From positions 65,590 through 129,589 of the forward strand of contig DAOUJP010000020.1 of assembly GCA_034422515.1 (NCBI GenBank): a DNA stretch of 64,000 bases. Reading direction: 5' to 3'. The stretch comes from Chloroflexota bacterium (GTDB lineage Bacteria > Chloroflexota > UBA11872 > UBA12225 > JAJDUF01). Every line of letters begins with the position of its first letter. Position 1 is the stretch's first letter. Of the stretch, positions 14,335 to 34,376 are shown in pieces. The position numbers and the translations under genes are program-made. The notes under the pieces were generated by a model, which was given only the letters and a program-made list of their open reading frames with translations, ran no database searches and had not been told where the DNA came from.

Positions 14335-14337
14335 GGC

Positions 14338-14826: not shown

Positions 14827-15304
14827 GCACCGGCTGAGTTGTCCCAGAGGAGTCTGGCGACGAGGGATCGCTGAAGTTGCACGCCGGGGAGAGGGACGGC
14901 ACGAGAGTGGCGCCTTCCTGCTTGGTCGCCGGCATGGTCTGCGCGGACACGTCGTGCGATTTGCCTACTACGATGACTTCGACCCATCCTGCCTTAAATC
15001 CGGCATTGTCGTGTTCGATGGAGCGGGGTTCGGACCGCTGTGGCAACTCTGCCGGCAGACCGGGCTGAGTGTCCTTGCCGATCTGCACACGCATGGCGGC
15101 TCTGGCCGGGCACGTCAGAGCGAACTTGACAGGGACAACCCCATGATCGCCCAGCCCGGTCACGTAGCGCTCATCGTCCCGAAATTTGCTCGCGACTTCA
15201 GGATGGAGGATGTGAGTATCTACGAGTACCTCGGTGGTCATAGTTGGCGCGATCACGGCAGTGCCCGTGGTGGGCGCTTCTTCTACACAGGGATATGGGC
15301 ATGA
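14774..15304 (+). CDS. JAB/MPN (JAMM) metalloprotease, deubiquitinase-like (BilD-like)
   Basis: Complete JAMM motif: upstream Glu (HESGAFLLG), then HTHGGSGRARQSELD (HxHx8Sx2D). The ORF overlaps the E2 gene and the true start may be downstream. Its stop overlaps the E1 start (ATGA). Confidence 0.65.
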   Translation: MSMIFSLRAIIRALAAPEHRLSCPRGVWRRGIAEVARRGEGRHESGAFLLGRRHGLRGHVVRFAYYDDFDPSCLKSGIVVFDGAGFGPLWQLCRQTGLSVLADLHTHGGSGRARQSELDRDNPMIAQPGHVALIVPKFARDFRMEDVSIYEYLGGHSWRDHGSARGGRFFYTGIWA

Positions 15305-16701: not shown

Positions 16702-17096
16702 CCCATCCTGCGCTACCGTCACGTGGCAGACTCCAGAGTCTAGGAAGTTCTCAACCTGCGAGTCAACTCAAGGCCGAGCTAGCATCATCACGTGTGATCC
16801 TCAATATGGAGACCGGGGCCGCGACACTCCTACAAGCATGCCACACCCAGGAGCACTCAAGTGCTGACCACCGAAGGGGCCATGGGATCGAAGGAGCATT
16901 TCGCGAAGCGGCATTCCACGCTCCCCGCTTCACTAACTGTGCAAGGGTACTCGTGGGGAGTGGCACTGGACAGTGCATGGCATCCAAACGGTCTCGATCC
17001 ATTATGATGAGGGACTGTAGACAAGGAACTGGTGCCATCCCCATGGGGTTGTGACCGCGCCGGGGTGCTTGCACCGATAGAGAGGACTGATGGCCG

Positions 17097-20000
17097 TTGG
17101 ATACTGCTACCGTGATCTGTGAAGGACAGGTGCTGACCGGGCCGCTGTTCAGCGAGCCGATGCGGGTGGAGACGGTGCGCCCCAACGGCCCCGATTCCGT
17201 GGAGGCCGGCTTGGTCGGGCAGCAGACGGAGCGGTTCCGGCGGGTGACGCTGACGGCAGCCGACATCGCAAGCCTCTCCGTCGCCAGTGCTGCGCTTACC
17301 TACGACGGAGACGGACAACTCCTGCGGCTCGGCCTCCAGGCGTATACCCTCGGCATCGCCCACGAGTTCGACCCCTACTTCGGCCTCTCCATCTCGCGGG
17401 TGGACCCGCTGCCCCATCAACTCGAAGCGGTCTACGACTACTTCATGAAGCTCCCCAGCGTGCGGTTCCTGCTGGCCGATGATGCCGGTGCCGGCAAGAC
17501 GATTATGGCTGGCCTGTTGATCCGCGAGCTCAAGCTGCGTGGGTTGGCCGAGCGGACTCTGGTCGTGTGCCCAGCCAACCTGACCTTTCAGTGGCAGCGC
17601 GAGTTGAAAGAGAAGTTCGATCAGCAGTTCCTGGTACTGAAGGGGAGCGATGTCCGCGACCAGTTTGGCGTCAACCAATGGCTCAGCCAAAAGCAGGTGA
17701 TTACTTCCCTCGATCTGGCCAAGCGCGAGGATATCTTGCCGGGCTTGCGACAGGTGCGCTGGGACCTGGTCATCGTAGATGAGGCCCATCGCATGTCAGC
17801 GCGAGACGAGACGCACAAGAGCCAACGCTACCGGCTGGGCGAGCTCCTCCGGGACAGCGCCGACAACTTGCTGCTTCTGACCGCCACGCCGCACAAGGGC
17901 GATCCGCACAACTTCACCCTCTTCCTGCAATTGCTCGACCAGGACGCCTATGCCGACGTGCAGTCCATCCGCGCGGCGATGGATAAGCAGCAGGCGCCCT
18001 TCTACCTGCGACGGACGAAGGAGGCGATGGTCTACTTCCCAGAACGTCAGCCGGACGGGGAGTGGGCCGCCCGGCCCGTGTTCACGAAGCGGATCACCCA
18101 CACGGCTGGCTTTGCTATCGCCGGGGATGAGTTCGAGCTGTACCAGGAGGTGACGCGGTTCGTGAAGCGGCAGAGTGCCCGCGCGGCGGCGCAGGGTGAC
18201 GACCGGCGAGCACGCGCCGTCGGCTTCCTCATGTCCCTCTACCAGCGGCGGCTCGCTTCCAGCACCTACGCCATGCGCCGCTCCCTGGAAAATCGGGCGA
18301 AGCGCCTGGCGGAGAACCTCAAGCAGGCCGAGGTCCTGGCACGGACAGTACCGCCCGACTTCTCCAACTGGGAAGCGGAGGAGTTCGAGGAGCTAGAGGA
18401 CCACGAACGCGAGCGCTTGGAGCGACTGCTGGACGCCGTCACGCTGGCCCGCAACGCCGAGGAGGTGCGCCGGGAGATCACGGCGTTGCAGGGCCTCGCC
18501 AGCACAGCCAAGTCCCTCGAAGGGTCCGGGAGCGAAGCGAAGTTGAGCCGGCTCAAGGAAATACTGCGCGAGCAAGGATTCTTCGACCACCCGGACCAGC
18601 AGTTGCTCATCTTCACCGAGTTCAAGGACACCCTCGACTACCTCCTGGAACGGTTGCAGGCCTGGGGGTTCCGCGTGGGAAGCATCCATGGCGGCATGAA
18701 GCCGGGGTCACGCGACGAACCAGGCACCCGGCTCTACACCGAGCAACAGTTCCGGGAGGGCGCCATCCAGGTGCTGGTGGCCACCGAGGCCGCCGGCGAG
18801 GGCATCAACCTCCAGTGCTGCCACATCCTCTTCAACTACGATATTCCCTGGAACCCCAATCGGCTGGAACAGCGTATGGGACGTATCCACCGCTACGGCC
18901 AGCGCTTCGATTGTCTCATCTTCAACTTTGTGGCCACCAACACCATCGAGGGCCGCGTGCTCCAGCGGCTGCTCGATAAGCTCCAAGAGATCAGGGACGC
19001 CCTCGAAGATGATGCCGTCTTCAATGTCGTCGGGGAGGTGTTGCCCGCCGCTCACGTGGATCGCGTGTTTCGGGACTACTACGCTGGCCACCTGGGCGAC
19101 GCTGACCTGGAAGACCGGCTCCTGCGGGACGTGGACGAGCGCCACTTCCGGGCCATTTGCCAGAATGCGCTGGAGGGGTTGGCGGCCAAGGGGCTCAACC
19201 TGGAGCTGCTCGTCGAGCGCCGCGCCCGCGCCCAAGCGCGCCGGATGGTGCCCGAGACCATCGCCCGCTTCCTGGCCGAGAGTGCTGGCAGCGCGTCCCT
19301 CCCCCTTCCCCCCGTGCGCCGCTGGCCACACACGTTTCAGCCGGGCCGGACGCCAACCGCCTTGCGGCGCTACGAGGGCGAGCCGGACTGGCAGCTCCCG
19401 GCGCTGGCGGTGCGCTACCCGCGAATTTCGACGGACCGGCACACGGCGGAAGCGCACAATCTGGAATGGGTTACGCCCGGCCATCCACTGTTCGAAGCCC
19501 TGCGCCGCCACGACCTGGAGCTGGCCCGGGAGGCCTTCGCCAGGGGGGCCTGCTTCCACTCCCTCCAACACGAGACCCCGGCGCGCCTCGACTGCTACAA
19601 GGCGCAGATCGTGGACGGCCTCGGCCACATCATCCATGAGCGGCTGTTCACCGTGGAGTTGGCGGAAGGCCGAGAACCCCGCCTCCGGGAGCCGGACATC
19701 CTCGGCAACCTGACGCCTGCCGCCGCCCCGGACGGCTTGCCTGCCGTGGCTACCCTGCCGGAAGCGACCGAGTGGCTGCACTCGGAGACGCTCGGACCGT
19801 TCATTGACGAGGTGCGTGCGGAGCGCCTGCCGGAGGTCGAGCGTATCGCCGATCATGTCGAAGTGGCCTTGGGCGAGGTGCTGTCCCGAGTTGACCAGGA
19901 GGTCGGCCGCGCCGGCGACGAGGTGCGGAATCAGATCACCGGTGCCGAGGGCCGCTTCGCCCAGGCCGAGGCCCGGCAGGATGAGGCACTGGCACGCCGC

Positions 20001-20540
20001 GAGCGGCGACGGCGCGAACTGACCCAGCAACGGGCGCTGACGCTCCAGGGCGTGGAGCGGCTGGCCAGCGTGCTGATCCTCCCACATCCTGAACGGGGCA
20101 GTGACGAGGTCCAACGGCTGCGGCCCAACCCGGAGACCGAGCAGGTCGCCATGCGCGTGGTCATGGCGCACGAGCAGGCCCAGGGACATCTCGTCACCGA
20201 CGTTCACGAGCAGAACCTGGGCTACGACGTGACCAGCTTGAATAAGGAGACCGGCGAGTCGCGCCTGATCGAGGTGAAGGGCTTGGCCGCTGCCGCTGGC
20301 ACTATCCTGCTGACGCCCAACGAGCGCCGCGTGGCGGAAGACCGCCGCGATTGCTACTGGCTGTACGTCGTCACGAATTGCGCCAGAGAGCCGCGGCTCC
20401 AGGACCCGATCCGGGACCCGGCCCGGTTCCCCTGGCACGAGGTCAGCAAGGTGCAGCATTATTGGCTGGAGCTGAACGCCATGACCCAACCCATGCAGAT
20501 CCGAGAGCAACGGGCGCCATACGGAGGACGGGACTCTTGA
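17097..20540 (+). CDS. SNF2-family helicase with a C-terminal DUF3883-like restriction-endonuclease-fold domain ('anti-phage-associated helicase')
   Basis: TTG start with a GAGAGGA RBS. SNF2 motifs: ADDAGAGKT (I), LVIVDEAHRMS (II), LLLTATPHKG (III), helicase-C (QRMGRIHRYGQ). The C-terminal TPNERRVAEDRRDCYWLYVVTNC...DPARFPWHEV matches DUF3883. Confidence 0.7.
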   Translation: MDTATVICEGQVLTGPLFSEPMRVETVRPNGPDSVEAGLVGQQTERFRRVTLTAADIASLSVASAALTYDGDGQLLRLGLQAYTLGIAHEFDPYFGLSISRVDPLPHQLEAVYDYFMKLPSVRFLLADDAGAGKTIMAGLLIRELKLRGLAERTLVVCPANLTFQWQRELKEKFDQQFLVLKGSDVRDQFGVNQWLSQKQVITSLDLAKREDILPGLRQVRWDLVIVDEAHRMSARDETHKSQRYRLGELLRDSADNLLLLTATPHKGDPHNFTLFLQLLDQDAYADVQSIRAAMDKQQAPFYLRRTKEAMVYFPERQPDGEWAARPVFTKRITHTAGFAIAGDEFELYQEVTRFVKRQSARAAAQGDDRRARAVGFLMSLYQRRLASSTYAMRRSLENRAKRLAENLKQAEVLARTVPPDFSNWEAEEFEELEDHERERLERLLDAVTLARNAEEVRREITALQGLASTAKSLEGSGSEAKLSRLKEILREQGFFDHPDQQLLIFTEFKDTLDYLLERLQAWGFRVGSIHGGMKPGSRDEPGTRLYTEQQFREGAIQVLVATEAAGEGINLQCCHILFNYDIPWNPNRLEQRMGRIHRYGQRFDCLIFNFVATNTIEGRVLQRLLDKLQEIRDALEDDAVFNVVGEVLPAAHVDRVFRDYYAGHLGDADLEDRLLRDVDERHFRAICQNALEGLAAKGLNLELLVERRARAQARRMVPETIARFLAESAGSASLPLPPVRRWPHTFQPGRTPTALRRYEGEPDWQLPALAVRYPRISTDRHTAEAHNLEWVTPGHPLFEALRRHDLELAREAFARGACFHSLQHETPARLDCYKAQIVDGLGHIIHERLFTVELAEGREPRLREPDILGNLTPAAAPDGLPAVATLPEATEWLHSETLGPFIDEVRAERLPEVERIADHVEVALGEVLSRVDQEVGRAGDEVRNQITGAEGRFAQAEARQDEALARRERRRRELTQQRALTLQGVERLASVLILPHPERGSDEVQRLRPNPETEQVAMRVVMAHEQAQGHLVTDVHEQNLGYDVTSLNKETGESRLIEVKGLAAAAGTILLTPNERRVAEDRRDCYWLYVVTNCAREPRLQDPIRDPARFPWHEVSKVQHYWLELNAMTQPMQIREQRAPYGGRDS

Positions 20541-22255
20541 CCCCAGAACGCCTCCAGGCACTCATCGCCGGCGGCGAAACCCTCGCCGTAGAGTTCAAAG
20601 GCGAGGCGGCCGCGCCCTTGGGGGATCGGGAGCTTGTCGAAACGGTCGTCTGTCTGGCTAACCGGAGCGACGACGGCCCCGGCTGGCTGCTGGTCGGAGT
20701 TGAGGATGACGGCCACGTGAGCGGCGCCCGTGCCCGCCACGAGACCGGGGGGATCGACCCCGTGCGTATCCAGGCGCTCGTGGCGAACCGCACGCGCCCC
20801 CCGCTTACCACGCGCGTCGCAGTGGATTCGAGCGGCGGACGGGATATCCTCATCATCGAGGTCCCCGCCGTTCACCGGCCCGTCGGTACGGCGGACGGAC
20901 GCTACCTGCGGCGCGCCATCGGCGGAGATGGCAAGCCATCCTGTGTGCCGTTCCACTTCCACGAGATGCAGTCGCAGCAGGCTGATCGCGGGATGCTCGA
21001 TCATGCTGCACTCCGGCTGGACGGCATCGGGATGGACGCGCTCGATCCGCTGGAGTTCGAACGCTACCGGCGCACAATCCGAGAGCACCGGCACCGTGGG
21101 GACAACGCGTTGCTCGATCTCAGCGACGTGGAACTGGCCAAGGCCCTGGGCGCGGTGGAGCACACCAATGGTGCCGTGACCGTCCGGGTGCTGGGCCTGC
21201 TGCTCTTCGGACGGGAGGACGCGCTGGCTGCCGCCCTGCCGGCGCACGAGGTGGCGTTCCAGGTGCTCGCCGGCAACGACGTGCAGGTCAACGACTTCTT
21301 GCGCTGGCCGCTGCTCCGGGTCATGGAAGAGCTGGCGGCCCGCTTTGAGGCGCGCAACCGCGAGCAAGAGGTCCACGTGGGCATGATCCGCGTCGGAGTG
21401 CCCGATTATCCCGCCCGCGCTTTTCGCGAGGGGGTCGCCAATGCCTTGATCCACCGGGATTACACCCGTCTTGGGGCCGTGCATGTGCAGTGGCGGGAAG
21501 ACCGGCTGGAAATCTCGAACCCCGGCGGCTTCCCGCTGGGAGTGCGCCTGGACAACCTGCTGGTCACTGCGCCGCGCCCCCGCAATCCGCTGCTGGCCGA
21601 TGCGTTCAAGCGCGCCGGCATCGTCGAACGCACCGCGCGGGGCATTGATACCATCTTCTACGAACAGCTTCGCAATGGCCGCCCCGCCCCCTCCTACGAC
21701 CGCAGCACCGAGGCCGGCGTGACCCTGGTGCTCCCCGGCGGCGTAGCCCACCTCGGATTCGTGCGGCTCGTGGTGGAGGCGGGCCGGGAGAGCAGCCCGC
21801 TTTCCCCGGACGAGCTGCTGCTCCTGACCGGGTTACAGCGGGAGCAGCACATAACGGCCGGCGAGGCAGCCGCAATGATACAAAGGGGGGCAGCGGATGC
21901 GGAGCATCTCCTGATGCAGTTGGGGCAGCGCGGTCTCGTCACCGTGCGGGGTTCGCACCGGCGGCAGGGGTTCCGGCTATCGGAAGCTGCGGCCCGGCAG
22001 CTTGGTGACCGCGTGGATGCCCAGCGCGGGCGCGCTGCACCAATCCGGCATGACGAGCTGGTGCGCCGGTACGTTGCGAGTCATGGCTCGATTTCACGCA
22101 AGGAAGCCGCGCGGCTCTGCGCCATCTCCGACTCGCGGGCCTATAGACTGTTGAAGCGGCTGGAGTCGGCCGGGGTCCTCCGGCGCATTGGCACACGCGG
22201 CCGGAACGTCCGCTATGAGCAAAACGCCGAGAAACGCACGGCGCGCGTTTCCTAA
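20537..22255 (+). CDS. AlbA_2 (Schlafen-like 'divergent AAA') + HATPase_c_4 domain protein (putative nucleic-acid-binding regulator)
   Basis: The N-terminal ETLAVEFKGE signature is typical of AlbA_2 (PF04326). The C-terminal part is winged-helix-like. The TTG start at 20537 overlaps the helicase stop (TTGA). Confidence 0.55.
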   Translation: MTPERLQALIAGGETLAVEFKGEAAAPLGDRELVETVVCLANRSDDGPGWLLVGVEDDGHVSGARARHETGGIDPVRIQALVANRTRPPLTTRVAVDSSGGRDILIIEVPAVHRPVGTADGRYLRRAIGGDGKPSCVPFHFHEMQSQQADRGMLDHAALRLDGIGMDALDPLEFERYRRTIREHRHRGDNALLDLSDVELAKALGAVEHTNGAVTVRVLGLLLFGREDALAAALPAHEVAFQVLAGNDVQVNDFLRWPLLRVMEELAARFEARNREQEVHVGMIRVGVPDYPARAFREGVANALIHRDYTRLGAVHVQWREDRLEISNPGGFPLGVRLDNLLVTAPRPRNPLLADAFKRAGIVERTARGIDTIFYEQLRNGRPAPSYDRSTEAGVTLVLPGGVAHLGFVRLVVEAGRESSPLSPDELLLLTGLQREQHITAGEAAAMIQRGAADAEHLLMQLGQRGLVTVRGSHRRQGFRLSEAAARQLGDRVDAQRGRAAPIRHDELVRRYVASHGSISRKEAARLCAISDSRAYRLLKRLESAGVLRRIGTRGRNVRYEQNAEKRTARVS

Positions 22256-22343
22256 ACGCACTCGTGCTATTAAACGCACGCGAACGGCTCATTAGCAGCG
22301 GCCGCTCAACTGGAGAGGGCATCCGATTCTCAGGAAGGTTTGA

Positions 22344-23210
22344 ATGAAAAGGATCGACGACAGTACGTTAGAAACGGTCGCTGAGTTGGTGTGTGGCTCA
22401 GGCGAGGGTGCTGGTGGAGGCTATTCGTCTCCGGGTCCTTATCGAACAATGGGCGAAATCAACGCATTCTTCCGCCGTGCGGGAGTGAGGCCTAGGGGTC
22501 AATCGTCAACCAGAAAGTGGTTCGTGTTGGAGTCTTTGCAATCAGTCAATGGGACAAATGGTCTGGAGAAGATACTGCTGAGAATATCATCTCCAAAAGA
22601 GTGTCGTGGCGATTCAGATTTGACGCAAAAAGTGGTTGACCACCTGAACGACGCTCTGCAGGTAGAGGGGCTGGAGGTCTACCTAGTTGGTGTTGATCCT
22701 CGAATTCGGGAGCGCAAGGCCTCTGCAAGTGTTCCCAGGGTGCAAGCGGCACCGTCAGAAGTTGCTCCCGATTTCCATCGCCTAGTAGAGGATAGCTCAT
22801 TGGCGGCAATATTATTACTGCGGTGGGAGGAAGCTCAGAAATGCGTCAATGCAGAAGCTTATCTCTCTGCTGTAGTAATGATGGGTAGCATCTTAGAGGG
22901 TGTGTTATTGCACAAAGTCGAAACAAATCCTGCAGATGCAAACCGAGCCAAGGAATCGCCGAAGAATCCGACAACTGGAAAACCTAAACAGTTCCACGAG
23001 TGGGGTCTCTCTGCCTTGATTGATGTTGCTCACGAATTAGGCTGGCTTCAGGGGGACGTTAGGCGCTTCAGTCATGCGTTGCGGGATTCTCGCAACATCG
23101 TCCATCCTTACATGGAAAGGTTGCTATCCGATAGACCGGATCGTGATACCTGTTCAATTTGCTGGCAGGTTGTTCGTGCGGCTGTTGCCGACTTGTTGGA
23201 AATAGACTGA
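22344..23210 (+). CDS. Hypothetical protein with a C-terminal HEPN-like Rx4-6H motif (RDSRNIVH); noticeably lower-GC gene
   Basis: The ORF sits in the AT-richest stretch of the window and is embedded between defence genes. The motif match alone is weak evidence. Confidence 0.35.
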   Translation: MKRIDDSTLETVAELVCGSGEGAGGGYSSPGPYRTMGEINAFFRRAGVRPRGQSSTRKWFVLESLQSVNGTNGLEKILLRISSPKECRGDSDLTQKVVDHLNDALQVEGLEVYLVGVDPRIRERKASASVPRVQAAPSEVAPDFHRLVEDSSLAAILLLRWEEAQKCVNAEAYLSAVVMMGSILEGVLLHKVETNPADANRAKESPKNPTTGKPKQFHEWGLSALIDVAHELGWLQGDVRRFSHALRDSRNIVHPYMERLLSDRPDRDTCSICWQVVRAAVADLLEID

Positions 23211-23215
23211 ATGAC

Positions 23216-26191
23216 ATGATCCCGAAAGAGTGCAAGCGACTGGCGGAGGTGGACTTCCCCATTTCCGAGGTGTCCAAGCACGCGGCGCGGGAGAAGTCCA
23301 TCCGACACGGTCATCCCTCGACGCTGCACCTGTGGTGGGCGCGGCGGCCTCTGGCCTCGTCGCGTGCCGTATTGCTGGCGCTGCTGCTGCCCGATCCATG
23401 CGAGTCGCTCTGCCCGCAATCATTCCGGGAACGCGCCAGGGAAGCCCTGCTGGCGCTGCGGACGCGGCCCTCCGCGTGGGAGAAACAGGTCCAGACAGAT
23501 GAAGGGCTGCGGGCGGCGCTCCTGCGCTTCATTGCCGACTTTGCCAACTGGGACAACGCCGCGAACGACGACTACCTGACGACGGGACGGGCGCTGGTGC
23601 GGGCCGCGCACCCGGAGCAGTCGCCGCTGGTCGTGGACCCCTTTGCCGGCGGCGGCTCCATCCCGCTGGAGGCGCTGCGGCTCGGCTGCGAGGCCTTTGC
23701 CAGCGACCTCAACCCGGTGGCCTGCCTGATCCTCAAGGTGCTGCTGGAGGACATCCCGCGCCATGGGCCGGGCCTGGCGGATGAGCTGCGGCGGGTCGGC
23801 GCGGAGATCAAGGAACAGGCAGCTAAGGAACTGGCCGACCTCTACCCCCAGGACCCGGACGGGGCAACACCTATCGCCTACCTCTGGGCACGGACGGTGC
23901 GCTGTGAAGCGCCCAACTGCGGTGCAGAGATTCCACTCATGCGCTCGCTGTGGCTGTGCCGGAAGGACAAGCGCAAGCGGGCGCTGCGGACCAGGATCGT
24001 GCGGGCGGACAGCGGGCCACCGCGCGTCGAGTTCGAGATATTCGCGCCGCAGTCCAATAGCGAGGTGGCCGACGGCACCGTGGCTCGCGCCAAGGCGACC
24101 TGTGTCTGCTGCGGTGCTGTGCTGCCGCCGGAGCGAGTACGCGCCCAGTTGTCTGCACAGAAAGGTGGCGCGGACGCAGTGTTCAATGCGGCCGGCCGCC
24201 GCACCGGCGGCGCGCGCCTGACGGCGGTCGTTACGCTCCGTCCTAGTGAAAGGGGCCGCCACTACCGCCTACCGACGGCTGACGACTATTCGGCTGTGCA
24301 TCTGGCACGGGAGCAGGTGAGCCGTATCCTGGATGAATGGGAGCGTGGTGGGAAGCAGGGCCTCTGCCCGGTGCCGGACGAGGTGATTTCGCTGAACGAA
24401 ATCCGGCGAATCAGTGTCCCGATCTACGGTATGCGTCGGTGGGGTGACCTGTTCACAGCGCGGCAGAAGGCAGCACTGGTGCAGTTGGGAAGGTTGGTCC
24501 CAACCTACGGGGAATCACTGAGAAGTTTGCTCGCCATAGCCGTGAGTCGAGTCGCTGGTGGTGGTGCATCCAGTTCCGCATGGCTGGCTTCTGGGGAGGA
24601 GGTCAAGCATGCGATCCCTCGGAATGCTCTGCCAATGGTCTGGGACTTTGGCGAATCGAACTGTCTAGCAACCACGTCGAGAAGCTGGGATAGTGCTCTT
24701 AACTCGATAGTTAATGTACTTGAAGGTGGCTCACTGGGATTAGTCTCCAGCCGAGTTGAACAGGCGGACGCTACCGATCACTCTCTGCACGATCAAGCCG
24801 CCGGAGTGTGGTTCACGGATCCACCTTACTACGACTCCGTACCCTATGCACATCTTTCGGATTTCTTCTTCGTATGGCTCCGACGTTCACTCGAACATAC
24901 GTTACCGGCAAGCCCCTTGAGTGAACACAACAGTACGACACCCAAAGACCGTGAAATTGTAGTGGATCGTCCGCACCACTTGAGCACATCCAAGAAGGAT
25001 GCCCTATTCTACGAGACCGAAATGGTGAATGCTTTCATCGAAGGTCGCAGAGTATTGCGGGAAGACGGGATTGGTTCTGTGGTGTTTGCCCACAAGACCA
25101 CCGAAGGCTGGGAAGCACTACTCTCCGGCCTGATCCGTGGCAGTTGGACTATCACCGGCTCCTGGCCCATTGCGACTGAAATGGGCGCAAGACTCAATGC
25201 GCGCGAGACCGCAGCTCTCGCCACCAGCATTCACCTCATTTGCCGTCCGCGACCCAAGGACGCGCCGGTTGGCGATTGGGCCGACGTACTGCGGGAGTTG
25301 CCTGGGCGCGTCGGGGACTGGATGCAGCGGTTGCAGGGCGAGGGCGTCCGGGGCGCGGACCTGGTGTTCGCCTGCGTCGGACCGGCGCTGGAGATCTACA
25401 GCCGCTACCGCCGCGTGGAGACACCGGCGGGCGACCAGATCGAGCTGCCGGCGTACCTGGAGAAAGTGTGGGAGGTCGTCGGCCGCGAGGCGTTGGAGCA
25501 GGTGCTGGGCACGGCGGAGGCGCAGGCCCGCAACGGCGCAGCCGCCGCACTGGAAGAGGATTCCCGCCTGACCGCGCTATTCCTGTGGACGCGGCAAAGC
25601 ACCGACGAACGGCCTGCTGCTGGGAACGACGCCGGTGATGATGCAGAGGACGGCGAGGCGGCAGCGTCGCGGCGCCGGCCCGCCGGCTACAGCCTGCCGT
25701 TCGACGTGGTGCGCCGCTTTGCCCAGCCGCTCGGCATCCACCTCGAGGCCTGGGAAGCGCGCCTCGTCGAGACCAAGAAGGGTGTGGTGCGCCTGCTGCC
25801 GGTCAGGGAACGCAGCGAACAGCTTTTCGGTGAGGCTGGGGCCGGCACGCTGGCCGACGAGATCGAATGGAACGCGGCGGCCGCGCAGCAGTTGAGCCTT
25901 TTCTCCACCGCACCGCCGCCCGTGCGCGGCCGGCAGCGAGGCCGGGGGCGGATGGCGGCCGTCGCGGACGATCTCGATGCTCCCTCGGCCGCGACGACGC
26001 TAGACCGGGTTCACGCCGCAATGCTCTTGCAGGCGTCGGGCCGCAGTCAGGCATTGCGGAACCTGCTGCGGGCCGAGCAGGAACGCGGCCCTGATTTCCT
26101 GCGCCTCGCCAACGCGCTGACCGCCCTCTACCCGCGCGGCAGCGATGAGAAGCGGCTGCTGGACGCCATGCTGTTGGCGGCGCCACGGTGA
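23216..26191 (+). CDS. DUF1156-domain N6-adenine DNA methyltransferase ('anti-phage-associated DUF1156 protein')
   Basis: N-terminal KRLAEVDFPISEVSKHAAREKSIRHGHPSTLHLWWARRPLASSRAV is the DUF1156 signature. SAM motif I VVDPFAGGGSIPLEA. Motif IV FTDPPYYDSVPY (DPPY) places it in the N6-adenine class. Confidence 0.75.
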   Translation: MIPKECKRLAEVDFPISEVSKHAAREKSIRHGHPSTLHLWWARRPLASSRAVLLALLLPDPCESLCPQSFRERAREALLALRTRPSAWEKQVQTDEGLRAALLRFIADFANWDNAANDDYLTTGRALVRAAHPEQSPLVVDPFAGGGSIPLEALRLGCEAFASDLNPVACLILKVLLEDIPRHGPGLADELRRVGAEIKEQAAKELADLYPQDPDGATPIAYLWARTVRCEAPNCGAEIPLMRSLWLCRKDKRKRALRTRIVRADSGPPRVEFEIFAPQSNSEVADGTVARAKATCVCCGAVLPPERVRAQLSAQKGGADAVFNAAGRRTGGARLTAVVTLRPSERGRHYRLPTADDYSAVHLAREQVSRILDEWERGGKQGLCPVPDEVISLNEIRRISVPIYGMRRWGDLFTARQKAALVQLGRLVPTYGESLRSLLAIAVSRVAGGGASSSAWLASGEEVKHAIPRNALPMVWDFGESNCLATTSRSWDSALNSIVNVLEGGSLGLVSSRVEQADATDHSLHDQAAGVWFTDPPYYDSVPYAHLSDFFFVWLRRSLEHTLPASPLSEHNSTTPKDREIVVDRPHHLSTSKKDALFYETEMVNAFIEGRRVLREDGIGSVVFAHKTTEGWEALLSGLIRGSWTITGSWPIATEMGARLNARETAALATSIHLICRPRPKDAPVGDWADVLRELPGRVGDWMQRLQGEGVRGADLVFACVGPALEIYSRYRRVETPAGDQIELPAYLEKVWEVVGREALEQVLGTAEAQARNGAAAALEEDSRLTALFLWTRQSTDERPAAGNDAGDDAEDGEAAASRRRPAGYSLPFDVVRRFAQPLGIHLEAWEARLVETKKGVVRLLPVRERSEQLFGEAGAGTLADEIEWNAAAAQQLSLFSTAPPPVRGRQRGRGRMAAVADDLDAPSAATTLDRVHAAMLLQASGRSQALRNLLRAEQERGPDFLRLANALTALYPRGSDEKRLLDAMLLAAPR

Positions 26192-26225
26192 TTACTGGAC
26201 GCACTTTGGAACACGGAGGGATGAC

Positions 26226-26483
26226 ATGACGACCAATCCCGAGCTCCTCCAGCGCATCACCGCTCGGCCGGGCGTCTTTGGTGGCAAGCCGATCATCCGC
26301 GACATGCGTATTGCCGTGGAGCATGTGCTGGGGATGCTTGCAGCCGGTGATTCTGCGGAGACGATTCTCCGGGAATATCCGGTCCTGGAACCTGAAGACA
26401 TCCAGGCGTGCCTGCTTTTTGCTCACCGCTCAATGGCCGGCGAGCATGTGTATGAACGTGTACCCGTGAGGGAAGCGTCTTGA
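26226..26483 (+). CDS. DUF433 family protein (antitoxin-like partner of DUF5615)
   Basis: 86 aa, RITARPGVFGGKPIIRDMRIAVEHVLGMLAAGDSAETILREYP, the typical DUF433 fold. Its stop overlaps the next gene's TTG start. Confidence 0.6.
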   Translation: MTTNPELLQRITARPGVFGGKPIIRDMRIAVEHVLGMLAAGDSAETILREYPVLEPEDIQACLLFAHRSMAGEHVYERVPVREAS

Positions 26484-26839
26484 AGTTCCTGCTCGACGTA
26501 TGCGCGGCGTCCCACAGCATGCATACGACGCTAACGGACTTGGGCCACGATGTCCTATCAGCTTTGGAAAGTGCCCCACTAGCCACCGATGAAGAATTGC
26601 TCGCCCTCGCAACTGAGCAGCAGCGGGTGCTTATTACCGAGGACAAGGACTTTGGCGAGTTGGTATTTGTACGTCGCTTGCCGCACCCATGCATCATTCG
26701 CTTTGTCGGCATGTCGGTCGCGGAGAAAGTGGCCGCAATGGGTGATCTGATCGAGTACCATGCGGATGCAATGTATGAGCGGAGTATGATCGTGGTGACA
26801 CAGAGTCGGGTTCGGATACGTCGCGGAGCACGCGGTTAG
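26480..26839 (+). CDS. DUF5615 (PIN-like / Mut7-C RNase fold) toxin-like protein
   Basis: MKFLLDVCAA...VLITEDKDFGEL is characteristic of DUF5615, which pairs with DUF433 in type II TA-like cassettes. Confidence 0.55.
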   Translation: MKFLLDVCAASHSMHTTLTDLGHDVLSALESAPLATDEELLALATEQQRVLITEDKDFGELVFVRRLPHPCIIRFVGMSVAEKVAAMGDLIEYHADAMYERSMIVVTQSRVRIRRGARG

Positions 26840-26954
26840 GGAAGCGGCGGCTAGTGAACCCTTGGTAAGGCGGTCGTAGCGTCCGCGCGTTGGTGTACCG
26901 GCCGCCGTCAGGCTGAAGGACAACCAGAGGCTTCAGGCCGCTGAGGTAGGAGGC

Positions 26955-29753
26955 TTGCTCATGCAACCCTGGTACAGAGTGGTCACGCCCCGTCAGGAAG
27001 TCCGGGAGGGCCGGTCGTTCAGTCCGGACGAGTTTGCGATTGCCCTGGAGCAGGTGGTGGCCGGGACCGCGCCACCGGACTACCGCGACCCGGCGCAGTT
27101 CTTCTCGCGCACGTGCTTTACCCGCGCCTTGACGGAACATGCCGGCATGGTGCTCCGGCGCCTATCCGGCCGGACGGAGAACACGGCGCCGGTGCTGACG
27201 CTGATTACGCAGTTCGGCGGCGGGAAGACGCACACGCTCACGTCGCTCTACCACCTCGCCAAGGCGGGGCCGGCCGCCGCCAAGCTACCCGGTGTCGCGG
27301 CGCTGCTACGCGCGGCGGGTATTGCGGAGGCTCCCGCCGCCCGCGTTGGCGTCTTCGTCGGCAATGCCTGGGACCCCGCGCCAGGACGGGAGACACCCTG
27401 GATTGACCTGGCCCGGCAACTGGCCGGCGATGCCGGCGTCGCCGCGCTCGGCGCAACCGCCCGGACCACGCCGCCGGGAACCGAGGCGCTGGCGCGGGTA
27501 TTCGCCGCCGCGGAGGCGCCGGTGCTGCTGCTCTTCGATGAGGTCCTGAACTTCGTCAATCGCCATCGCCGCCTGGCAGATAGCTTCCATGCCTTTCTCC
27601 AGAACCTGACCGTCGCCGTCACCGGCGCGACCCGCGCGGCAGCGGTCATCAGCCTGCCGCGCAGCCAGGTCGAGATGACCGCGCGGGACCAGGAGTGGCA
27701 GGAGCGGATTACCAAGGTCGTGCGCCGCGTTGCCCGCGATCTCATCGCCAACGACGAGTCCGAGATCAGCGAGGTGGTGCGCCGGCGCCTGTTCGAGGAC
27801 CTCGGGAGCAAGCGCGTGCGCCGGAACGTGGCTCGGACCTATGCCGACTGGTGCTTCGAGCGCAGCGCTAGGCTGCCCGCCGAGTGGACGGCCGTGGACA
27901 CCGCGACCACGGACAAGCGGGCCAGAGACTTCCTCCGCAACCGATTCGAAGCCTGCTATCCCTTCCACCCGGCGACGCTGTCCGTCTTCCAGCGCAAGTG
28001 GCGCGCGCTCACCCAATTCCAACAGACTCGCGGGGCGCTGGCGATGCTGGCGCAATGGATTTCCTGGGCCTCGCGCGAGCAGTTCCAGCAGGCGCGGACG
28101 GAGCCGCTGATTACCCTGGGATCGGCGCCGCTGCATGTGCCCGAGTTCCGCGCCGTGGTGCTCGGCCAGCTGGGGGAGCAACGGCTTGACGTGGCCATTG
28201 ACGCCGATATCGCCGGGGAGCTGGCGCACGCCAAGGCCTTGGACGCGGACACCACGGGTGCGCTGCGCGACATCCACTGCCGCGTGGGCACGGCCATCCT
28301 GTTCGAGTCTTCCGGGGGGCAGGTGGACAGAGTGGCCAGCCTGCCGGAACTGCGGTTTGCGCTGGGGGAGGAGCCTGCTGTCGATACCACAACCGTTGAC
28401 AGCACCGCATTAGCGCTGGAGCGATCCGGGTTCTTTATCCGGAAGATTGGTACGGACGGCTATCGCATCCACCATCAAGCGACGCTACGCAAAGTCGTCA
28501 GCGACCGGCGCGCCTCGCTCGACGAGGAGACAGAGATCAAGCCGGCGGTCCGCAAGCTGGTTCAGGGTGAGTTCGCCCGCGACCCGACGATTCCGGTCGC
28601 CTATTTTCCGGAGGATGGGAGCGCGGTGCCGGATTCGCCGCGCCTGACGCTGGTCGTCGTGGACCCCGCTGAGGATTGGGACGGTGGGGGGCTCCTCCGC
28701 GCACGCATCGGCGAGTGGACCAAGGAGCGGGGCCGGTCGCCGCGGCTCTATCCTGGCTCGCTGGTCTGGTGTGCAAAGAAGCCGGGACGGGAGCTGCGGG
28801 AGCGGGTTGCGCTATGGCTCGCCTGGCAGCGCGTGTCGCGCGAGGTTGCAAGCGGCTCGCTCGGTACCGAGTTCGACCGCGGGGAGCGCACCGAAGTGCA
28901 GACCAGGGTCAGGGAGGCGGAGGCGGAGGCCAAAGAGGAGGTGTGGGCCAGTTATCGCTTCGTTGCGCTGCGGGAGGCCCAAGCGGCGGACGAACTGAAG
29001 GTCATAGACCTCGGCGCGGGCCACTCCAGCGCCAGCGGCACCCTCTGCGATCGGATTGTCACCGCCTTGAAGTCCGAGGCGCTGCTGAACGAGTCCGTCG
29101 GAGCCGGGTACATCGAGCGGCATTGGCCGCCGGCCTTTGAGGAGACGGGTGCCTGGCCACTCAGCGGCCTGCGGCGGAGCTTTCTCGACGGCTCGTTGAC
29201 CCGGCTGCTGGATGCGGATGCGGTGCTGCGCCGGAAGATCGTCGAATTCGTGGGTAGTGGGGACTTTGGGCTGGCCTCCGGGGACCGCGGCGACGGCCAA
29301 TATGCGCGGCTGGAGTACGCAGAACAGATTGGGGAGGAAGCGGTCACGTTTGACGACGACATCTTCCTGCTCACCAAGGCCAGGGCTCAACAGGTCCAGG
29401 CCCCTTCCGGCGGCCGGACGCCGCTGCAACCGGTACTCTCGATGGCCCCGTCCACCACCACTGAGCCGGACCCCGATTCTGGTTTGAGCGGCCTCTCGCC
29501 CACTCCCCATCCGCCATCAGGGGGAAAAACGGCAACGCTGCGGCTCACGGGTACTGTGCCGCTGGAACTCTGGAACGGGATCGGGAGCAGAGTGCTAGCT
29601 AGGCTCCGACCCGCAGGAAGCCGGAGCGTGGATGTAGATGTCGCGCTTGCCGTGACGGTTGACGCAGCGCAGGCCCATCACCAAACGATGGAACTGCGGC
29701 AGGCCCTCGCCGACCTGAGACTGGACGATCAGGTGCAGGTGGAAGCATCGTGA
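26955..29753 (+). CDS. DUF499-domain P-loop ATPase ('anti-phage-associated DUF499 protein')
   Basis: 932 aa. Walker A TQFGGGKTHTLTSL and Walker B LLLFDEV. The size and the N-terminal MxxWYRVVTPRQEVREG segment are typical of DUF499 proteins that co-occur with DUF1156 methyltransferases and DUF3883 helicases. Confidence 0.65.
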   Translation: MLMQPWYRVVTPRQEVREGRSFSPDEFAIALEQVVAGTAPPDYRDPAQFFSRTCFTRALTEHAGMVLRRLSGRTENTAPVLTLITQFGGGKTHTLTSLYHLAKAGPAAAKLPGVAALLRAAGIAEAPAARVGVFVGNAWDPAPGRETPWIDLARQLAGDAGVAALGATARTTPPGTEALARVFAAAEAPVLLLFDEVLNFVNRHRRLADSFHAFLQNLTVAVTGATRAAAVISLPRSQVEMTARDQEWQERITKVVRRVARDLIANDESEISEVVRRRLFEDLGSKRVRRNVARTYADWCFERSARLPAEWTAVDTATTDKRARDFLRNRFEACYPFHPATLSVFQRKWRALTQFQQTRGALAMLAQWISWASREQFQQARTEPLITLGSAPLHVPEFRAVVLGQLGEQRLDVAIDADIAGELAHAKALDADTTGALRDIHCRVGTAILFESSGGQVDRVASLPELRFALGEEPAVDTTTVDSTALALERSGFFIRKIGTDGYRIHHQATLRKVVSDRRASLDEETEIKPAVRKLVQGEFARDPTIPVAYFPEDGSAVPDSPRLTLVVVDPAEDWDGGGLLRARIGEWTKERGRSPRLYPGSLVWCAKKPGRELRERVALWLAWQRVSREVASGSLGTEFDRGERTEVQTRVREAEAEAKEEVWASYRFVALREAQAADELKVIDLGAGHSSASGTLCDRIVTALKSEALLNESVGAGYIERHWPPAFEETGAWPLSGLRRSFLDGSLTRLLDADAVLRRKIVEFVGSGDFGLASGDRGDGQYARLEYAEQIGEEAVTFDDDIFLLTKARAQQVQAPSGGRTPLQPVLSMAPSTTTEPDPDSGLSGLSPTPHPPSGGKTATLRLTGTVPLELWNGIGSRVLARLRPAGSRSVDVDVALAVTVDAAQAHHQTMELRQALADLRLDDQVQVEAS

Positions 29754-30081
29754 TCGCCAGCCCGAACCGCCACAACACGGCGATGCCTGGAGGGAATAGC
29801 CACGTGGTGGGTGTGGGCGGCGGTGGCTTGGCAAGATGCTGGAATCTGTCCGAGCACCAACCGTCCTTGACACCGAGGCTGTGCAGAAACTGAGGCTGGG
29901 CTGCCCCTGGTAGGTCGGGAGGGGCATTCTTCTGGGACGTCAGCGGGGTGGCTACGCTCGTAGTCGTTATCGCCGTGGGCATATAGTTCCAGGAAGAGTG
30001 GGGGATAGTGAACCGTTTCGGTGGAGTTGTCCCCACCGGGACGGGCTTAAACGCAAGAAGCCCGCATATAGGGGGAGGCAG

Positions 30082-30116
30082 GGGAAGCCATCGCTGGCAA
30101 TGCGATGGCTTCCCCT
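30082..30116. terminator. Bidirectional hairpin terminator (GGGGAAGCCATCGC-TGGCAA-TGCGATGGCTTCCCC) between the convergent DUF499 and helicase genes
   Basis: Perfect 14-bp inverted repeat immediately 3' of the minus-strand helicase stop (30127) and ~330 nt after the DUF499 stop. Confidence 0.5.
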
Positions 30117-30126
30117 ACTGGAGCGA

Positions 30127-32427
30127 TCAGCGTCCCGCGCTGACCAACTTGGCCTCCTGCTCTTGAGCCACCAGCCACTCGAAGAGCGGCAGGGTCGCGG
30201 GCGACTGTTTGCGCCGGCCCTTTGGCTTCGCGGGTTCCTGGGCCAGGAACTCTGCCCAGGAGAACAGTTCCTCTTGCTGCGGTGCCGGGTCGTCGTCGTG
30301 CCGACGTTTGCCGTTGACCGCTACCGCTGCTTCACCCTTGCCGTTCGCCCCGCTGGCGGGGGCCGCGACCACCATCGGCTCGCTTGCGACGGCCTGCCAG
30401 CCCTCGTCCACCAGCAACGTCTCGGCGTCGGCTGCGGCTGCCTGCGCTTGGGCGAACACCGCTGCCACCGCCTCGGTTGCCGCCGGCTCATCCCCACTGA
30501 CGATCTGGCGGGCCAGCGCCAGCAGCAGGTCGTCGCCATCGTCCCCGTAGGCGGCCAGCCCCTCCTCCGGCAGCTCCCCCTCCACCGCCAGCGAGCTTTG
30601 CAGCTTCTTCGCCACCAGTGTCAGGGCATCGGCCTGCAAGGTCTGCCGGTAGGCCAGGTAGACTACCTGCACCGGCCGGGTCTGCCCGATCCGCCAGGAC
30701 CGGCGCGAGGCCTGCCGCAGCGTGTAGACCGAGTAGTCCGTCTCGTACCAGCAGACGGTCGCAAAGTCGATCAGGTCCAAGCCCGTCTGCACCAGCCGGG
30801 GATGACACACCAGCACGTCCAGGCCTTCCTCGACCCGCTCCGCCACCCACGCTTCGCGGCGGTCAGGCTTCACCGCGTCCGCCTTCAACACGGCCACCCG
30901 GGCGCCCTGCCGGGTGAGCAGCGCGTGCAGCCGCCCGGTGATGTCCCGCGTGCCGGTATGGGTGACGTAGACCAGCACCCGGCGCCCGGCACGGCGCTCC
31001 GTTGCCACCAGGTCCAGCAAGGCCTGCTCCTTCGGATACACGCGCTCCGCGGACAAGGGCGGTACCTGGACCAGGGGGTGCTGCGTCTGCGGATCGAAGA
31101 CCGTCTCGCCGCGGGTGCAGCCGTCGGGGTAGGCCAGCAGGGTTTGCAGGTAGGCGCCCAGCAGCCGCTTGGACCCCTGGGACAGCGCAGCGGCCAGGGC
31201 CTTGCGCAGCGTGGTGAAGACGGCCTGGTAGGCGCTGCGCTGGGAATACCCCGTCTCATCCGGCGTGTCGTCGAGGTCCACCAGGCGTACCTGCTCGGTG
31301 TAGGGCGGTAAGCCACTGGCCACGTCGGCGAGGCGCAGGAAGACGGTGTGCCCGATGAGGTGGAACAGGGCGGCCGGGGCCAGGCCGGGCCGCTCCCGGA
31401 TCACCGTGCGGTAGCGCCGGCGCCGGCTGTGGCGGCCGTCCTCCAGCGGCTCATCGGCCGGCCGGCGGACGGTGTGCTCGACAAACCCGTAGCGGGCGAT
31501 CCAGCGGGACTCTTCGTGGTGCGCGAACTCCGCCCGCAGGGCCGGGGAGAACCGGTAGAGCAGGTGGAAGAGGGTGCTGGCGTAGCCACCGGCCAGGGTG
31601 CCGGTGAGCGCCAGGGAGGTCCCGCAGACGTCGGCCAGAATGCCGGCGGCGATGCCCTGGGCGGACCCGCGCCCCTTGTATTCATGCACCTCGTCGGCGA
31701 TCAGCAGGTCGAACCAACCCGGCAGCCGCTGCTTGATGTAGTCGGCGAGGGGATAGCGGCGGGGACCGCGGCGGTCGGCCTGCCAGAGGGCGGCGCCGCA
31801 CGCACTACAGCGGCGCTTGCGGCGGGCCAGCTCCGCGTCCGTCAGGGGCACGCCGTCGGAGGTGACTACCTGGGTGGCACAGACGGGGCACGTCGGGACG
31901 CGGAACGGTTCCCCCGTGGCCTCGTCCCGCAGCAGCCGCCCGTCGGCGGTGGCCCAGCGTTGAGTGACAGCGGGCTGCCAGCGGTAGGAGAGCTTGGCGC
32001 GCTCGCGGGACATGATGGCGAAGAGCGGGCCGGGGCCGCTGGCGTGGCGCAGCCGCTCCAGGTCCGTGATGGAGGTGACGATGGCGGCGCGGGCACCGGG
32101 GATGGTGGCTTCCACCTCCCGCTGCCACTTCCGGGTCAGGTGGGGTGGGACCAGCACCAGGATGCGCTGGCAGCCGGCCAGGTGGGCGGCGGCGGTGGCG
32201 ATGAAGGTCTTGCCGGTACCCATCTCGCCGACGACGGTGGTGCCGCGCTGGGTGGTGAGGGAGTGGGCGGTGCCCCGAATGGCGGTTTCCTGGGCCCCCA
32301 GCGGGGTGCGCAGCAACGGGGGCAGCGGCCGGTCGTCCCGGGCGGGCCGGTACTGGGGTGGGTAGGAGTCCACCACCCGCTGGGCGATGGCGTCCTTGTA
32401 GGTGTCGAGGAACGTGCTCAGGTTCAT
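30127..32427 (-). CDS. DEAD/DEAH (SF2, SNF2-like) helicase with an internal zinc-ribbon (phage/ICE replication module)
   Basis: Walker A GEMGTGKTF, DEVH box (LLIADEVHEYKG), a CPVC...CSAC zinc ribbon, and a helicase C-terminal domain (VCHPRLVQTGLDL). Confidence 0.6.
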   Translation of the reverse strand: MNLSTFLDTYKDAIAQRVVDSYPPQYRPARDDRPLPPLLRTPLGAQETAIRGTAHSLTTQRGTTVVGEMGTGKTFIATAAAHLAGCQRILVLVPPHLTRKWQREVEATIPGARAAIVTSITDLERLRHASGPGPLFAIMSRERAKLSYRWQPAVTQRWATADGRLLRDEATGEPFRVPTCPVCATQVVTSDGVPLTDAELARRKRRCSACGAALWQADRRGPRRYPLADYIKQRLPGWFDLLIADEVHEYKGRGSAQGIAAGILADVCGTSLALTGTLAGGYASTLFHLLYRFSPALRAEFAHHEESRWIARYGFVEHTVRRPADEPLEDGRHSRRRRYRTVIRERPGLAPAALFHLIGHTVFLRLADVASGLPPYTEQVRLVDLDDTPDETGYSQRSAYQAVFTTLRKALAAALSQGSKRLLGAYLQTLLAYPDGCTRGETVFDPQTQHPLVQVPPLSAERVYPKEQALLDLVATERRAGRRVLVYVTHTGTRDITGRLHALLTRQGARVAVLKADAVKPDRREAWVAERVEEGLDVLVCHPRLVQTGLDLIDFATVCWYETDYSVYTLRQASRRSWRIGQTRPVQVVYLAYRQTLQADALTLVAKKLQSSLAVEGELPEEGLAAYGDDGDDLLLALARQIVSGDEPAATEAVAAVFAQAQAAAADAETLLVDEGWQAVASEPMVVAAPASGANGKGEAAVAVNGKRRHDDDPAPQQEELFSWAEFLAQEPAKPKGRRKQSPATLPLFEWLVAQEQEAKLVSAGR

Positions 32428-32608
32428 GCTGCTCTCCTTTCTTCCCTTCGGTTGCGGTGAGTCGGTCGGGGGTCGGTCGTGTGCAGTGGGTGGGGGTAAC
32501 TTGGGGGAGGCGCCGGGGTAGGAAAAACGGACGCGGCCCCGCCGTTCCGAGGCCGGAACAACGAGGCCGCGTGGGATCGTAGGACGGTGCCGACTATGGG
32601 GGAACGCG

Positions 32609-34332: not shown

Positions 34333-34376
34333 GCTCCTTTCGTTGTTGGGTGGGGTGCCGGACGGGCCCTCGGGTC

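Follow-up and report, generated by a model that had tools for sequence, protein, structure and literature searches.

A probable Hma (type-1 BREX-related) anti-phage operon with embedded RNase-type modules in an uncultured Chloroflexota bacterium

Seven genes in the genome of an uncultured Chloroflexota bacterium most probably constitute an Hma system, also called a type-1 BREX-related (BR) system, that is, a restriction-modification (RM)-like anti-phage operon in which RNase-type modules are embedded. The genes lie in one direction on the plus strand, at positions 17097-29753 of a 64,000-nucleotide stretch (contig DAOUJP010000020.1, positions 65,590 to 129,589; assembly GCA_034422515.1), which is called the window here and supplies all coordinates unless a locus number is given. 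Three large genes, for a helicase, a methyltransferase and an ATPase, are interleaved with four smaller ones (Table 1). The HmaA/HmaB/HmaC triad was proposed in the PADLOC paper (Payne et al. 2021), and the Hma loci were renamed DUF499-centred BR systems in a comparative study (PMC12839542, NAR 2026). According to that study, type-1 BR combines the DUF499 ATPase with a DUF1156 N6-methyltransferase and with a Swi2/Snf2 helicase whose C-terminal restriction endonuclease is active, and an RM-like model is given for this type; RNases of the Schlafen-HisK-winged helix-turn-helix (wHTH), HEPN and PIN types embedded in BR core loci are called "backup effectors". Both Hma and the three kinds of accessory have been described before, so the locus is a clear example of a known system, and the comparison of loci leaves its classification as it was. 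What is modestly new is the positional linkage of a 288-amino acid (aa) HEPN gene, orf288, to hmaB, a slot for RNase toxin pairs before hmaC in HEPN-less lineages, and the turnover of cassettes between near-identical loci.

Results

Assignment of the system

The PADLOC models of HmaA, HmaB and HmaC matched the three large proteins with E-values of 4e-175, 6.3e-115 and 6.3e-96, respectively, and the DrmD, BrxHI/II, MTase_II, generic DUF499 and mad2 models scored far below them. All the sequence-level features of Hma/type-1 BR were found: the NOV_C helicase, the DUF1156 methyltransferase, the DUF499 ATPase, and recurrence of the three genes in one direction elsewhere. A search of the GTDB representative genomes with HmaB retrieved 59 loci (numbered with the prefix L below, as are those from a second search), and the 46 of them that hold all three genes have the order A-B-C on one strand without exception, from Chloroflexota to archaea. 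Catalytic motifs are intact in HmaA, HmaB, HmaC and the Schlafen protein. Neither Pfam nor PADLOC gave a match to PglZ or to the type-2 markers (DUF3780 and the N-terminal HKD domain) in the seven proteins or their neighbours, and the window thus has the tripartite core without DUF3780, HKD and PglZ that characterises type-1 BR (PMC12839542). A first-pass annotation, made from the letters of this region, had named these genes, and all of them are present on the plus strand. It had also assigned DUF3883 (currently named NOV_C), DUF1156 and DUF499, which Pfam confirmed (3.5e-23, 2.5e-23 and 6.9e-15), and had taken the triad for a methyltransferase-containing defence system whose three families should co-occur in other genomes, as they do.

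The same annotation had tentatively labelled the triad as the methylation-associated defence system (MADS). The locus does resemble MADS in being a multi-gene, methyltransferase-containing operon within a defence island, and HmaB gave a weak match to the mad2 model (E = 1.7e-3). However, MADS is an eight-gene operon (mad1-8) with a kinase and a specificity subunit, and its detection model requires MAD6, MAD7 and MAD8. The gene set of the window is wholly different: in the PADLOC scan of all seven proteins no mad model appeared besides the weak and generic mad2 match, and the three large proteins matched the Hma models end to end. With the mandatory MAD6, MAD7 and MAD8 unmatched and the Hma models matching at 4e-175, 6e-115 and 6e-96, MADS was rejected, and the locus is almost certainly not of this kind; the PADLOC check proposed earlier thus returned a defence triad under another name. 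It is also very unlikely that the locus is a degenerate type-3 BREX or DISARM system. HmaA matched DrmD (6.7e-116) and BrxHI/II (1.4e-109), and the BR core is homologous to BrxC, BrxX and BrxHII of type-3 BREX (PMC12839542), so that the ATPase, the N6-methyltransferase and the Snf2 helicase of the window are BrxC-like, BrxX-like and BrxHII-like, respectively. The Hma-specific model nevertheless reached 582 bits against 386 and 366, and PglZ, BrxA, BrxB, BrxL, DrmB (DUF1998) and DrmC were not found in the seven genes or the flanks. Unlike type-3 BREX, the window has neither PglZ nor other Brx genes, its methyltransferase has a DUF1156 N-terminal domain and its helicase bears a C-terminal NOV_C nuclease that is predicted to be active; both of these domains are type-1 BR features (PMC12839542). 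Membership in DISARM and in type-3 BREX was rejected by the PADLOC and Pfam scans, which found no PglZ and no DrmB DUF1998 with DrmA.

With the Hma locus of Halomonas meridiana (PMC11232893) the window shares the three proteins, which in the window match the PADLOC models over their full length, and the order hmaA-hmaB-hmaC. Extra genes between the core genes, as in the window, occur in 66.5% of hma loci (PMC11232893). Their identity differs, however: in Halomonas the hmaA-hmaB interval holds Septu and the hmaB-hmaC interval an AAA_21 pair, whereas the uncultured Chloroflexota host has the Schlafen-HisK-wHTH and HEPN genes in the former and DUF433/DUF5615 in the latter. The window also differs from type-1 BR as described in PMC12839542 in two respects. 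Its HmaC belongs to the minority without an N-terminal HEPN domain, the fused form being found in 1370 of 2446 taxa, and three RNase superfamilies stand together within one operon. The main text of that study does not explicitly describe orf288 as tightly paired with hmaB, nor a toxin-pair slot before hmaC.

Gene arrangement

Gene starts were refined by Shine-Dalgarno sites, by the N-termini kept in the nearest relative and by the ENA gene calls for the scaffold of the window, NGUY21-1_SAMN17524325_METAG-scaffold_4. The 1147 aa earlier given for the helicase stand, but the 1010 aa given for the methyltransferase used an upstream TTG and were corrected to 991 aa, and the 932 aa of the ATPase, also from TTG, became 930 aa. 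The stop codon (TGA) of hmaA overlaps the TTG start of the Schlafen gene as TTGA, and GGAGGA stands 8 nt upstream of this start. The gaps that follow are 88 nt from the Schlafen gene to orf288, 5 nt from orf288 to hmaB and 34 nt from hmaB to the DUF433 gene; the DUF433 and DUF5615 genes overlap by 4 nt (26480-26483), and 121 nt separate the DUF5615 gene from hmaC. The intergenic spacing across the seven genes is operon-like. GC content at third codon positions (GC3) is 0.81-0.84 for hmaA (0.84), the Schlafen gene (0.81) and hmaC.

Table 1. Features of the Hma locus, with positions in the window
Feature	Position	Strand	Description
hmaA	17097-20540	+	1147 aa; Swi2/Snf2 helicase with C-terminal NOV_C (DUF3883) PD-(D/E)XK nuclease
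Schlafen/AlbA_2-HATPase_c_4-HTH gene	20537-22255	+	572 aa; TTG start
orf288	22344-23210	+	288 aa; two-domain protein, helical/beta N-terminal domain and DUF4145-type HEPN C-terminal domain
hmaB	23216-26191	+	991 aa; DUF1156 amino-methyltransferase, predicted N6-adenine; zinc ribbon; hypervariable central segment
hmaB hypervariable low-GC core	24503-25039	+	presumed target-recognition region
DUF433 gene	26226-26483	+	85 aa; putative antitoxin/regulator; GGAGGG Shine-Dalgarno site, ATG at 26226
DUF5615 gene	26480-26839	+	119 aa; PIN-like, putative RNase toxin
hmaC	26961-29753	+	930 aa (932 aa from TTG); DUF499 AAA+ (ORC/Cdc6-like) ATPase

Core proteins

The PADLOC HmaA model spans residues 10-1093 of HmaA, and besides NOV_C the protein has the Pfam domains SNF2-rel_dom (1.3e-18) and Helicase_C (3.7e-25). 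Its motifs are GAGKT131, DEAH228, QRMGRIHR592 (motif VI) and, in the nuclease, E1059-V-K1061. It is 95% identical to the orthologue of the nearest relative. As in Halomonas, HmaA is composed of a Snf2 core and the NOV_C PD-(D/E)XK domain with conserved D/ExK residues. In E. coli, HmaA of Halomonas meridiana is by itself enough for protection against T4, by way of its NOV_C nickase (PMC11232893), and HmaA of the window is the predicted primary effector.

HmaB has motif I as FAGGG143 and motif IV as DPPY535, the latter of the amino-methyltransferase type, and shares the start MIPKECKRL with the nearest relative, L001. Its central part of about 250 residues (~350-600) is hypervariable and mosaic across all loci. 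In the core of this part the DNA colinearity with L001 stops exactly at 24503-25039, protein identity to L001 falls to 20-53% and GC3 is 0.53; for residues ~400-550 the best match is in another locus, L065 (69-73%). The hypervariable core is presumed from these sequence features to be the target-recognition region. HmaA and HmaC distances are tightly correlated among the loci (rho 0.81, Mantel p 0.001), and those of HmaB are decoupled from both (rho 0.13-0.18). Two loci showed irregular hmaB genes: in L066 (8873-11871) the gene is split into two ORFs of 335 and 661 aa, and in L016 (10001-14454) the hmaB span is ~1.45 kb longer than in other loci. Frameshifts or insertions may account for both, with the methyltransferase inactivated or remodelled as a result.

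HmaC is covered by the PADLOC HmaC model over residues 1-817 and has a Walker A motif (GGGKT88) and a Walker B motif (LLLFDE). It has no N-terminal extension and is thus the version without the Swt1-type HEPN. Among 29 distant loci, 15 have an HmaC extended at the N-terminus by ~160-250 residues, and HEPN_Swt1 was detected in six of the six extensions tested (E-values 1e-13 to 1e-40).

Accessory genes

The Schlafen protein has SLFN_AlbA_2 (1.4e-11), HATPase_c_4 (6.2e-17) and, at the C-terminus, HTH_28/HTH_24 (wHTH) domains. Residues 14-21 (ETLAVEFK) correspond to the Ex4(E/D)xK catalytic motif of Schlafen tRNases. The codon composition of the gene is that of hmaA, and the protein is 94% identical in L001. 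Schlafen homologues or other Schlafen fusions occupy the hmaA-hmaB slot in L006, L012, L009 (a DUF262-Slfn fusion) and many metagenome loci. At least 1017 taxa are reported to have a protein of this build, Slfn with a minimal histidine-kinase-like ATPase and wHTH, in close linkage with BREX/BR core loci (PMC12839542), and HisKinase-HTH is the second most common architecture of prokaryotic Schlafens (19.2%; bioRxiv 10.1101/2025.07.24.666596), some of which are phage-activated tRNases. The protein of the window shares with the Schlafens of the latter study the Ex4(E/D)xK nuclease domain, the HisKinase-like and HTH domains and the location in a defence island; unlike the characterised RorSlfn5, which has an Ig-like sensor, it is of the HisKinase-HTH type, with a predicted RNase role.

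In orf288 the Pfam DUF4145 model scored 16.4 bits, below the gathering cutoff of 23.1 (E = 0.0096). DUF4145 was matched at E <= 0.05 by 33 of 50 homologues (best 3.9e-5) and AbiJ_NTD3 by three of the 50; the helical/beta N-terminal domain of orf288 is weakly AbiJ_NTD3-like. The C-terminal domain has the HEPN four-helix fold, and in its motif R247-x6-H254 (RDSRNIVH; RxxRNxxH) the residues R247, R250, N251 and H254 are invariant in the 50 homologues. The HEPN assignment is therefore confirmed by structure and motif and marginal by Pfam. The family is large and uniform in length, with more than 414 homologues; the best 120, which were listed, are 63-91% identical and include sources in Planctomycetes, Pseudomonadota and Chthonomonadales.

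No orf288 was found in any of the 59 HmaB-seeded loci, and L001 carries an unrelated 340-aa ORF in its place. With GC 0.51 and GC3 0.495, orf288 could have been a random recent insertion. A metagenome scan seeded with orf288 alone (80 loci; flanks of at least 600 bp were required for neighbour counts) overturned this candidate, as it returned mostly Hma loci. In 39 of the 57 loci with enough flank, hmaB follows orf288 on the same strand, within 40 nt in 30 of the 57, and hmaA lies upstream in 37 of 56. Close homologues stand in two complete hmaA-orf288-hmaB-DUF433-DUF5615-hmaC loci (L065 and L066). Homologues below ~50% identity are not linked to Hma. In 40 of 44 loci the orf288 homologue has a lower GC3 than the core genes next to it (mean difference -0.11), the sub-lineage of the window being the most extreme, and low GC is thus largely a family-wide property. 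Given this pattern and the linkage to Hma, the random-insertion reading was dropped. By BLASTP and an HMM of the orf288 family, no N-terminal domain was shared with the other proteins encoded upstream of hmaB (340 aa in L001/L018; 304 aa in L002 and L015; TIR in L005; L008). In L064 (6864-9052) a decayed Hma remnant stands beside a type III-like RM pair (N6_N4_Mtase and ResIII); what is left is a 341-aa piece of HmaA that has only its NOV_C end, a 59-aa remnant of the N-terminus of HmaB and, intact, the orf288 homologue (89% identical).

The two genes before hmaC were identified by Pfam as DUF433 (1.4e-22) and DUF5615 (3.2e-16, with weaker PIN_10 and Mut7-C matches). Acidic residues D6, E53, D54 and D56 were seen in the DUF5615 sequence. 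The genes are adjacent and overlapping with DUF433 first, and resemble a type II toxin-antitoxin pair in which the toxin/RNase role is putative. Of the 17 closest loci, 12 have the pair between hmaB and hmaC (L007, one of these, keeps DUF433 alone), and it also occurs in L065, L066, L109, L110 and L112. Distances of DUF433 and DUF5615 co-vary (rho 0.80). In L011 and L016, HmaC is 95% identical but DUF5615 only 48%, which is consistent with a slot that is conserved while the cassette itself is replaced. Other occupants of this slot in the HEPN-less lineage are MNT-HEPN pairs in L099, L100 and L109 (the last has both this pair and DUF433/DUF5615) and a gene pair of the same size in L122, judged by sizes only; a lone HEPN protein in L088 and an ORF of the same size in L089, judged by size only; and AAA_21 with or without DUF4276, PARIS-like, in L005 and L008. 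Neither orf288 nor a toxin pair was found in any of the 15 distant loci with an extended HmaC. This complementary pattern of fused HEPN and separate RNase genes suggests that a separate RNase gene replaces the HmaC-fused HEPN, in a sample that is small and non-random.

With these data all four domain assignments of the accessory genes in the first-pass annotation were borne out. The AlbA_2/HATPase_c_4 protein said to be translationally coupled to the helicase has these domains and the TTGA overlap with GGAGGA, the distinctly low-GC HEPN-like ORF is low in GC3 against the 0.81-0.84 of hmaA, the Schlafen gene and hmaC and carries the Rx6H motif in an HEPN structure, and the DUF433/DUF5615 pair is where it was placed. 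The gene-order comparison that it proposed did reveal conserved accessories, namely orf288 beside hmaB and the pair in the closest loci. Of its two suggestions, system-specific accessories or nested acquisitions, the evidence leans to a mixture: the types of module (orf288, the RNase pair before hmaC) recur with Hma, and the cassettes are exchanged between close loci.

Related loci

Slot contents were taken from tblastn and Pfam, as a greedy ORF-picking script mis-called slots in high-GC DNA (e.g. antisense ORFs). The closest loci (59-79% identity) are from Chloroflexota/Dehalococcoidia, Acidimicrobiales and Ca. Aldehydirespirator metagenome-assembled genomes (MAGs), and the nearest relative is L001, the Chloroflexota MAG OZ242293.1. 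The DNA of the window and L001 is colinear over 17080-36852 with two precise breaks, one at 22294-23214 (orf288) and the other at 24503-25039 inside hmaB. Upstream of 17080 the two are wholly different. The homology begins 17 nt upstream of the hmaA start codon, so the promoter region of the operon is not common to these two otherwise 94%-identical loci. In L001 the upstream region holds a nucleotidyltransferase gene and a 519-aa neighbour, which are CBASS-like (SMODS and an E1/E2 fusion) as read from translations alone.

The hmaA-hmaB slot is filled in sister loci by a CAP12-type TIR protein, an OLD-family AAA_15-TOPRIM protein with a KTSC protein, an SMC/PHP ATPase with Schlafen, DUF262-Schlafen, a 304-aa protein with an RNRLTH motif and zinc ribbons, or the 340-aa family. 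The members of the last in L001 (8982-10004) and L018 (8991-10004) are 337-340 aa long, 70% identical to each other and encoded directly upstream of hmaB. The family had no Pfam match and is a candidate effector. The comparison suggests that accessory cassettes turn over between sister loci by recombination, in the fixed slots hmaA-hmaB and hmaB-hmaC.

Flanking genes

The operon belongs to a defence island, on either side of which are housekeeping genes; these stop at ~7.5 kb with an EamA transporter and resume at 41.1 kb with a molybdopterin oxidoreductase. Directly upstream of hmaA is a complete BilABCD set for bacterial ISG15-like ubiquitination (13741-16701, plus strand), absent from L001, with PADLOC matches of 1e-46 (BilA), 1.5e-66 (BilB), 6.8e-61 (BilC) and 6.5e-170 (BilD). 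Before it, at 8805-13671 on the plus strand, is a gene region for an 1133-aa UvrD-type helicase with an N-terminal IrrE/Peptidase_M78 and a C-terminal PD-(D/E)XK domain; in PADLOC this helicase is closest to GajB and RTasHel, and genes for a sigma-70 region 4 protein and a 224-aa protein without family match precede it. This region may be another defence module.

Downstream, 30127-40889 is a block of very high GC (0.72-0.77). On the minus strand it encodes an SF2 helicase (766 aa), a DUF6094 methyltransferase (mad2-like, 2e-14), a 458-aa protein, Rad52 and a DnaG-like primase, and these are followed on the plus strand by a large serine recombinase gene (39303-40889). The colinearity with L001 reaches into this block, through 36852, at 76-87% DNA identity. 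The block looks like an integrated mobile element. No tRNA genes were found at the island edges. Two adjacent tRNA-Ser genes (anticodons TGA and GCT) at 58839-59050 on the plus strand are far from these edges, so they are not the island integration site.

Discussion

The Hma locus of the window is complete, and a two-layered action may be proposed for it. HmaB would mark self by methylating the host DNA at a motif that its hypervariable centre recognises. HmaC, as an ORC/Cdc6-like AAA+ protein related to BrxC, would assemble or license the complex on unmodified invader DNA. HmaA would then move along DNA by its Swi2/Snf2 motor and nick or cut it with the C-terminal PD-(D/E)XK nuclease. These steps are predictions from the protein families, save for the protection against T4 by the Halomonas HmaA nickase. 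Inside the array the Schlafen-HisKinase-wHTH protein, the DUF4145-type HEPN protein and DUF433/DUF5615 would represent three RNase-type modules, which most likely form a second, abortive-infection layer that cleaves tRNA or mRNA once the DNA-targeting layer is overwhelmed or inhibited. This role as a backup follows the proposal made for BR systems (PMC12839542). In this Chloroflexota-centred lineage HmaC is without the N-terminal Swt1-type HEPN of many other HmaC proteins, and separate genes may supply the RNase function instead.

It is possible, though on the whole doubtful, that the interleaved genes are self-sufficient defence or selfish modules that settled in permissive hotspots and are functionally unconnected with HmaABC. 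In the Halomonas study the hma region is characterised as a hotspot for insertions, where whole systems, Septu, PARIS and Ppl among them, are found (PMC11232893), and the slots of sister loci hold OLD-family nucleases, PARIS-like AAA_21 with DUF4276, a TIR protein and a DUF262-Schlafen fusion. Loci that share 91-95% identity in hmaA and hmaC carry different cassettes, the composition of orf288 is foreign and the gene is also found outside Hma, and prokaryotic Schlafens act as single-gene systems (bioRxiv 10.1101/2025.07.24.666596). However, orf288 stands beside Hma genes in about two thirds of its loci and within 40 nt of hmaB in more than half, which far exceeds the expectation for a generic hotspot. 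Moreover, in lineages without the HmaC-fused HEPN it is specifically RNase toxin pairs, PIN-like or MNT-HEPN, that occupy the position before hmaC, and the Schlafen gene is joined to hmaA by its overlapping start and its codon composition. The low GC3 of orf288 agrees with a cassette whose transfer among Hma loci is more frequent than that of the core genes. We tentatively consider that the RNase arm of HEPN-less Hma has been split from HmaC into fixed-slot genes, with the highly conserved orf288, closely tied to hmaB, as a quasi-core fourth component and an exchangeable toxin pair before hmaC; this should be taken as a possibility rather than as the expected outcome.

Several observations weigh against reading the locus as an RM-like operon with integrated RNase modules. 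A scan of the locus for consensus promoters and terminators found nothing exceeding shuffled expectation and was uninformative, so single-operon transcription is inferred from spacing and strand alone. Co-phylogeny of DUF433/DUF5615 with the core was tried and rejected: distances of the pair correlate weakly and non-significantly with those of HmaA and HmaC (rho 0.14-0.33, Mantel p 0.07-0.18; for HmaC rho 0.14-0.25, with DUF5615 at 0.14). We therefore do not claim vertical co-inheritance, and hence functional integration, of this pair with the Hma core. Some HEPN-less Hma loci carry no RNase module at all. Two orf288 homologues are in non-Hma contexts, one flanked by IS elements and the other beside an MNT-HEPN pair among housekeeping genes, and the low GC3 of orf288 also agrees with a mobile defence gene that stands alone and has a preference for this position. 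Finally, in the only tested Hma system, that of Halomonas, over-expression of HmaB left T4 sensitivity unchanged and HmaA acted alone (PMC11232893), so the methylation-based self/non-self step is unproven for the family.

The mechanism of Hma/type-1 BR is mostly inferred, and experimental data are limited to the Halomonas HmaA. Because the locus is intact with all motifs, comes from a poorly studied phylum and has the three classes of RNase "backup" in one operon, it is a convenient construct for testing. It is suited to the idea of a layered defence, in which DNA restriction comes first and RNA-targeted abortive infection second, and to the question of whether HmaC controls the RNases. The comparison of loci supplies a specific hypothesis: orf288 is mostly beside hmaB, and toxin pairs fill the slot where the fused HEPN sits elsewhere. 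If this proposal is right and HmaC directly licenses the RNases, Hma would be an RM-like system that controls toxin-antitoxin-type effectors as its abortive-infection layer, and the Swt1-HEPN fusion, the MNT-HEPN pairs and the DUF433/PIN-like pairs would be interchangeable solutions within the family.

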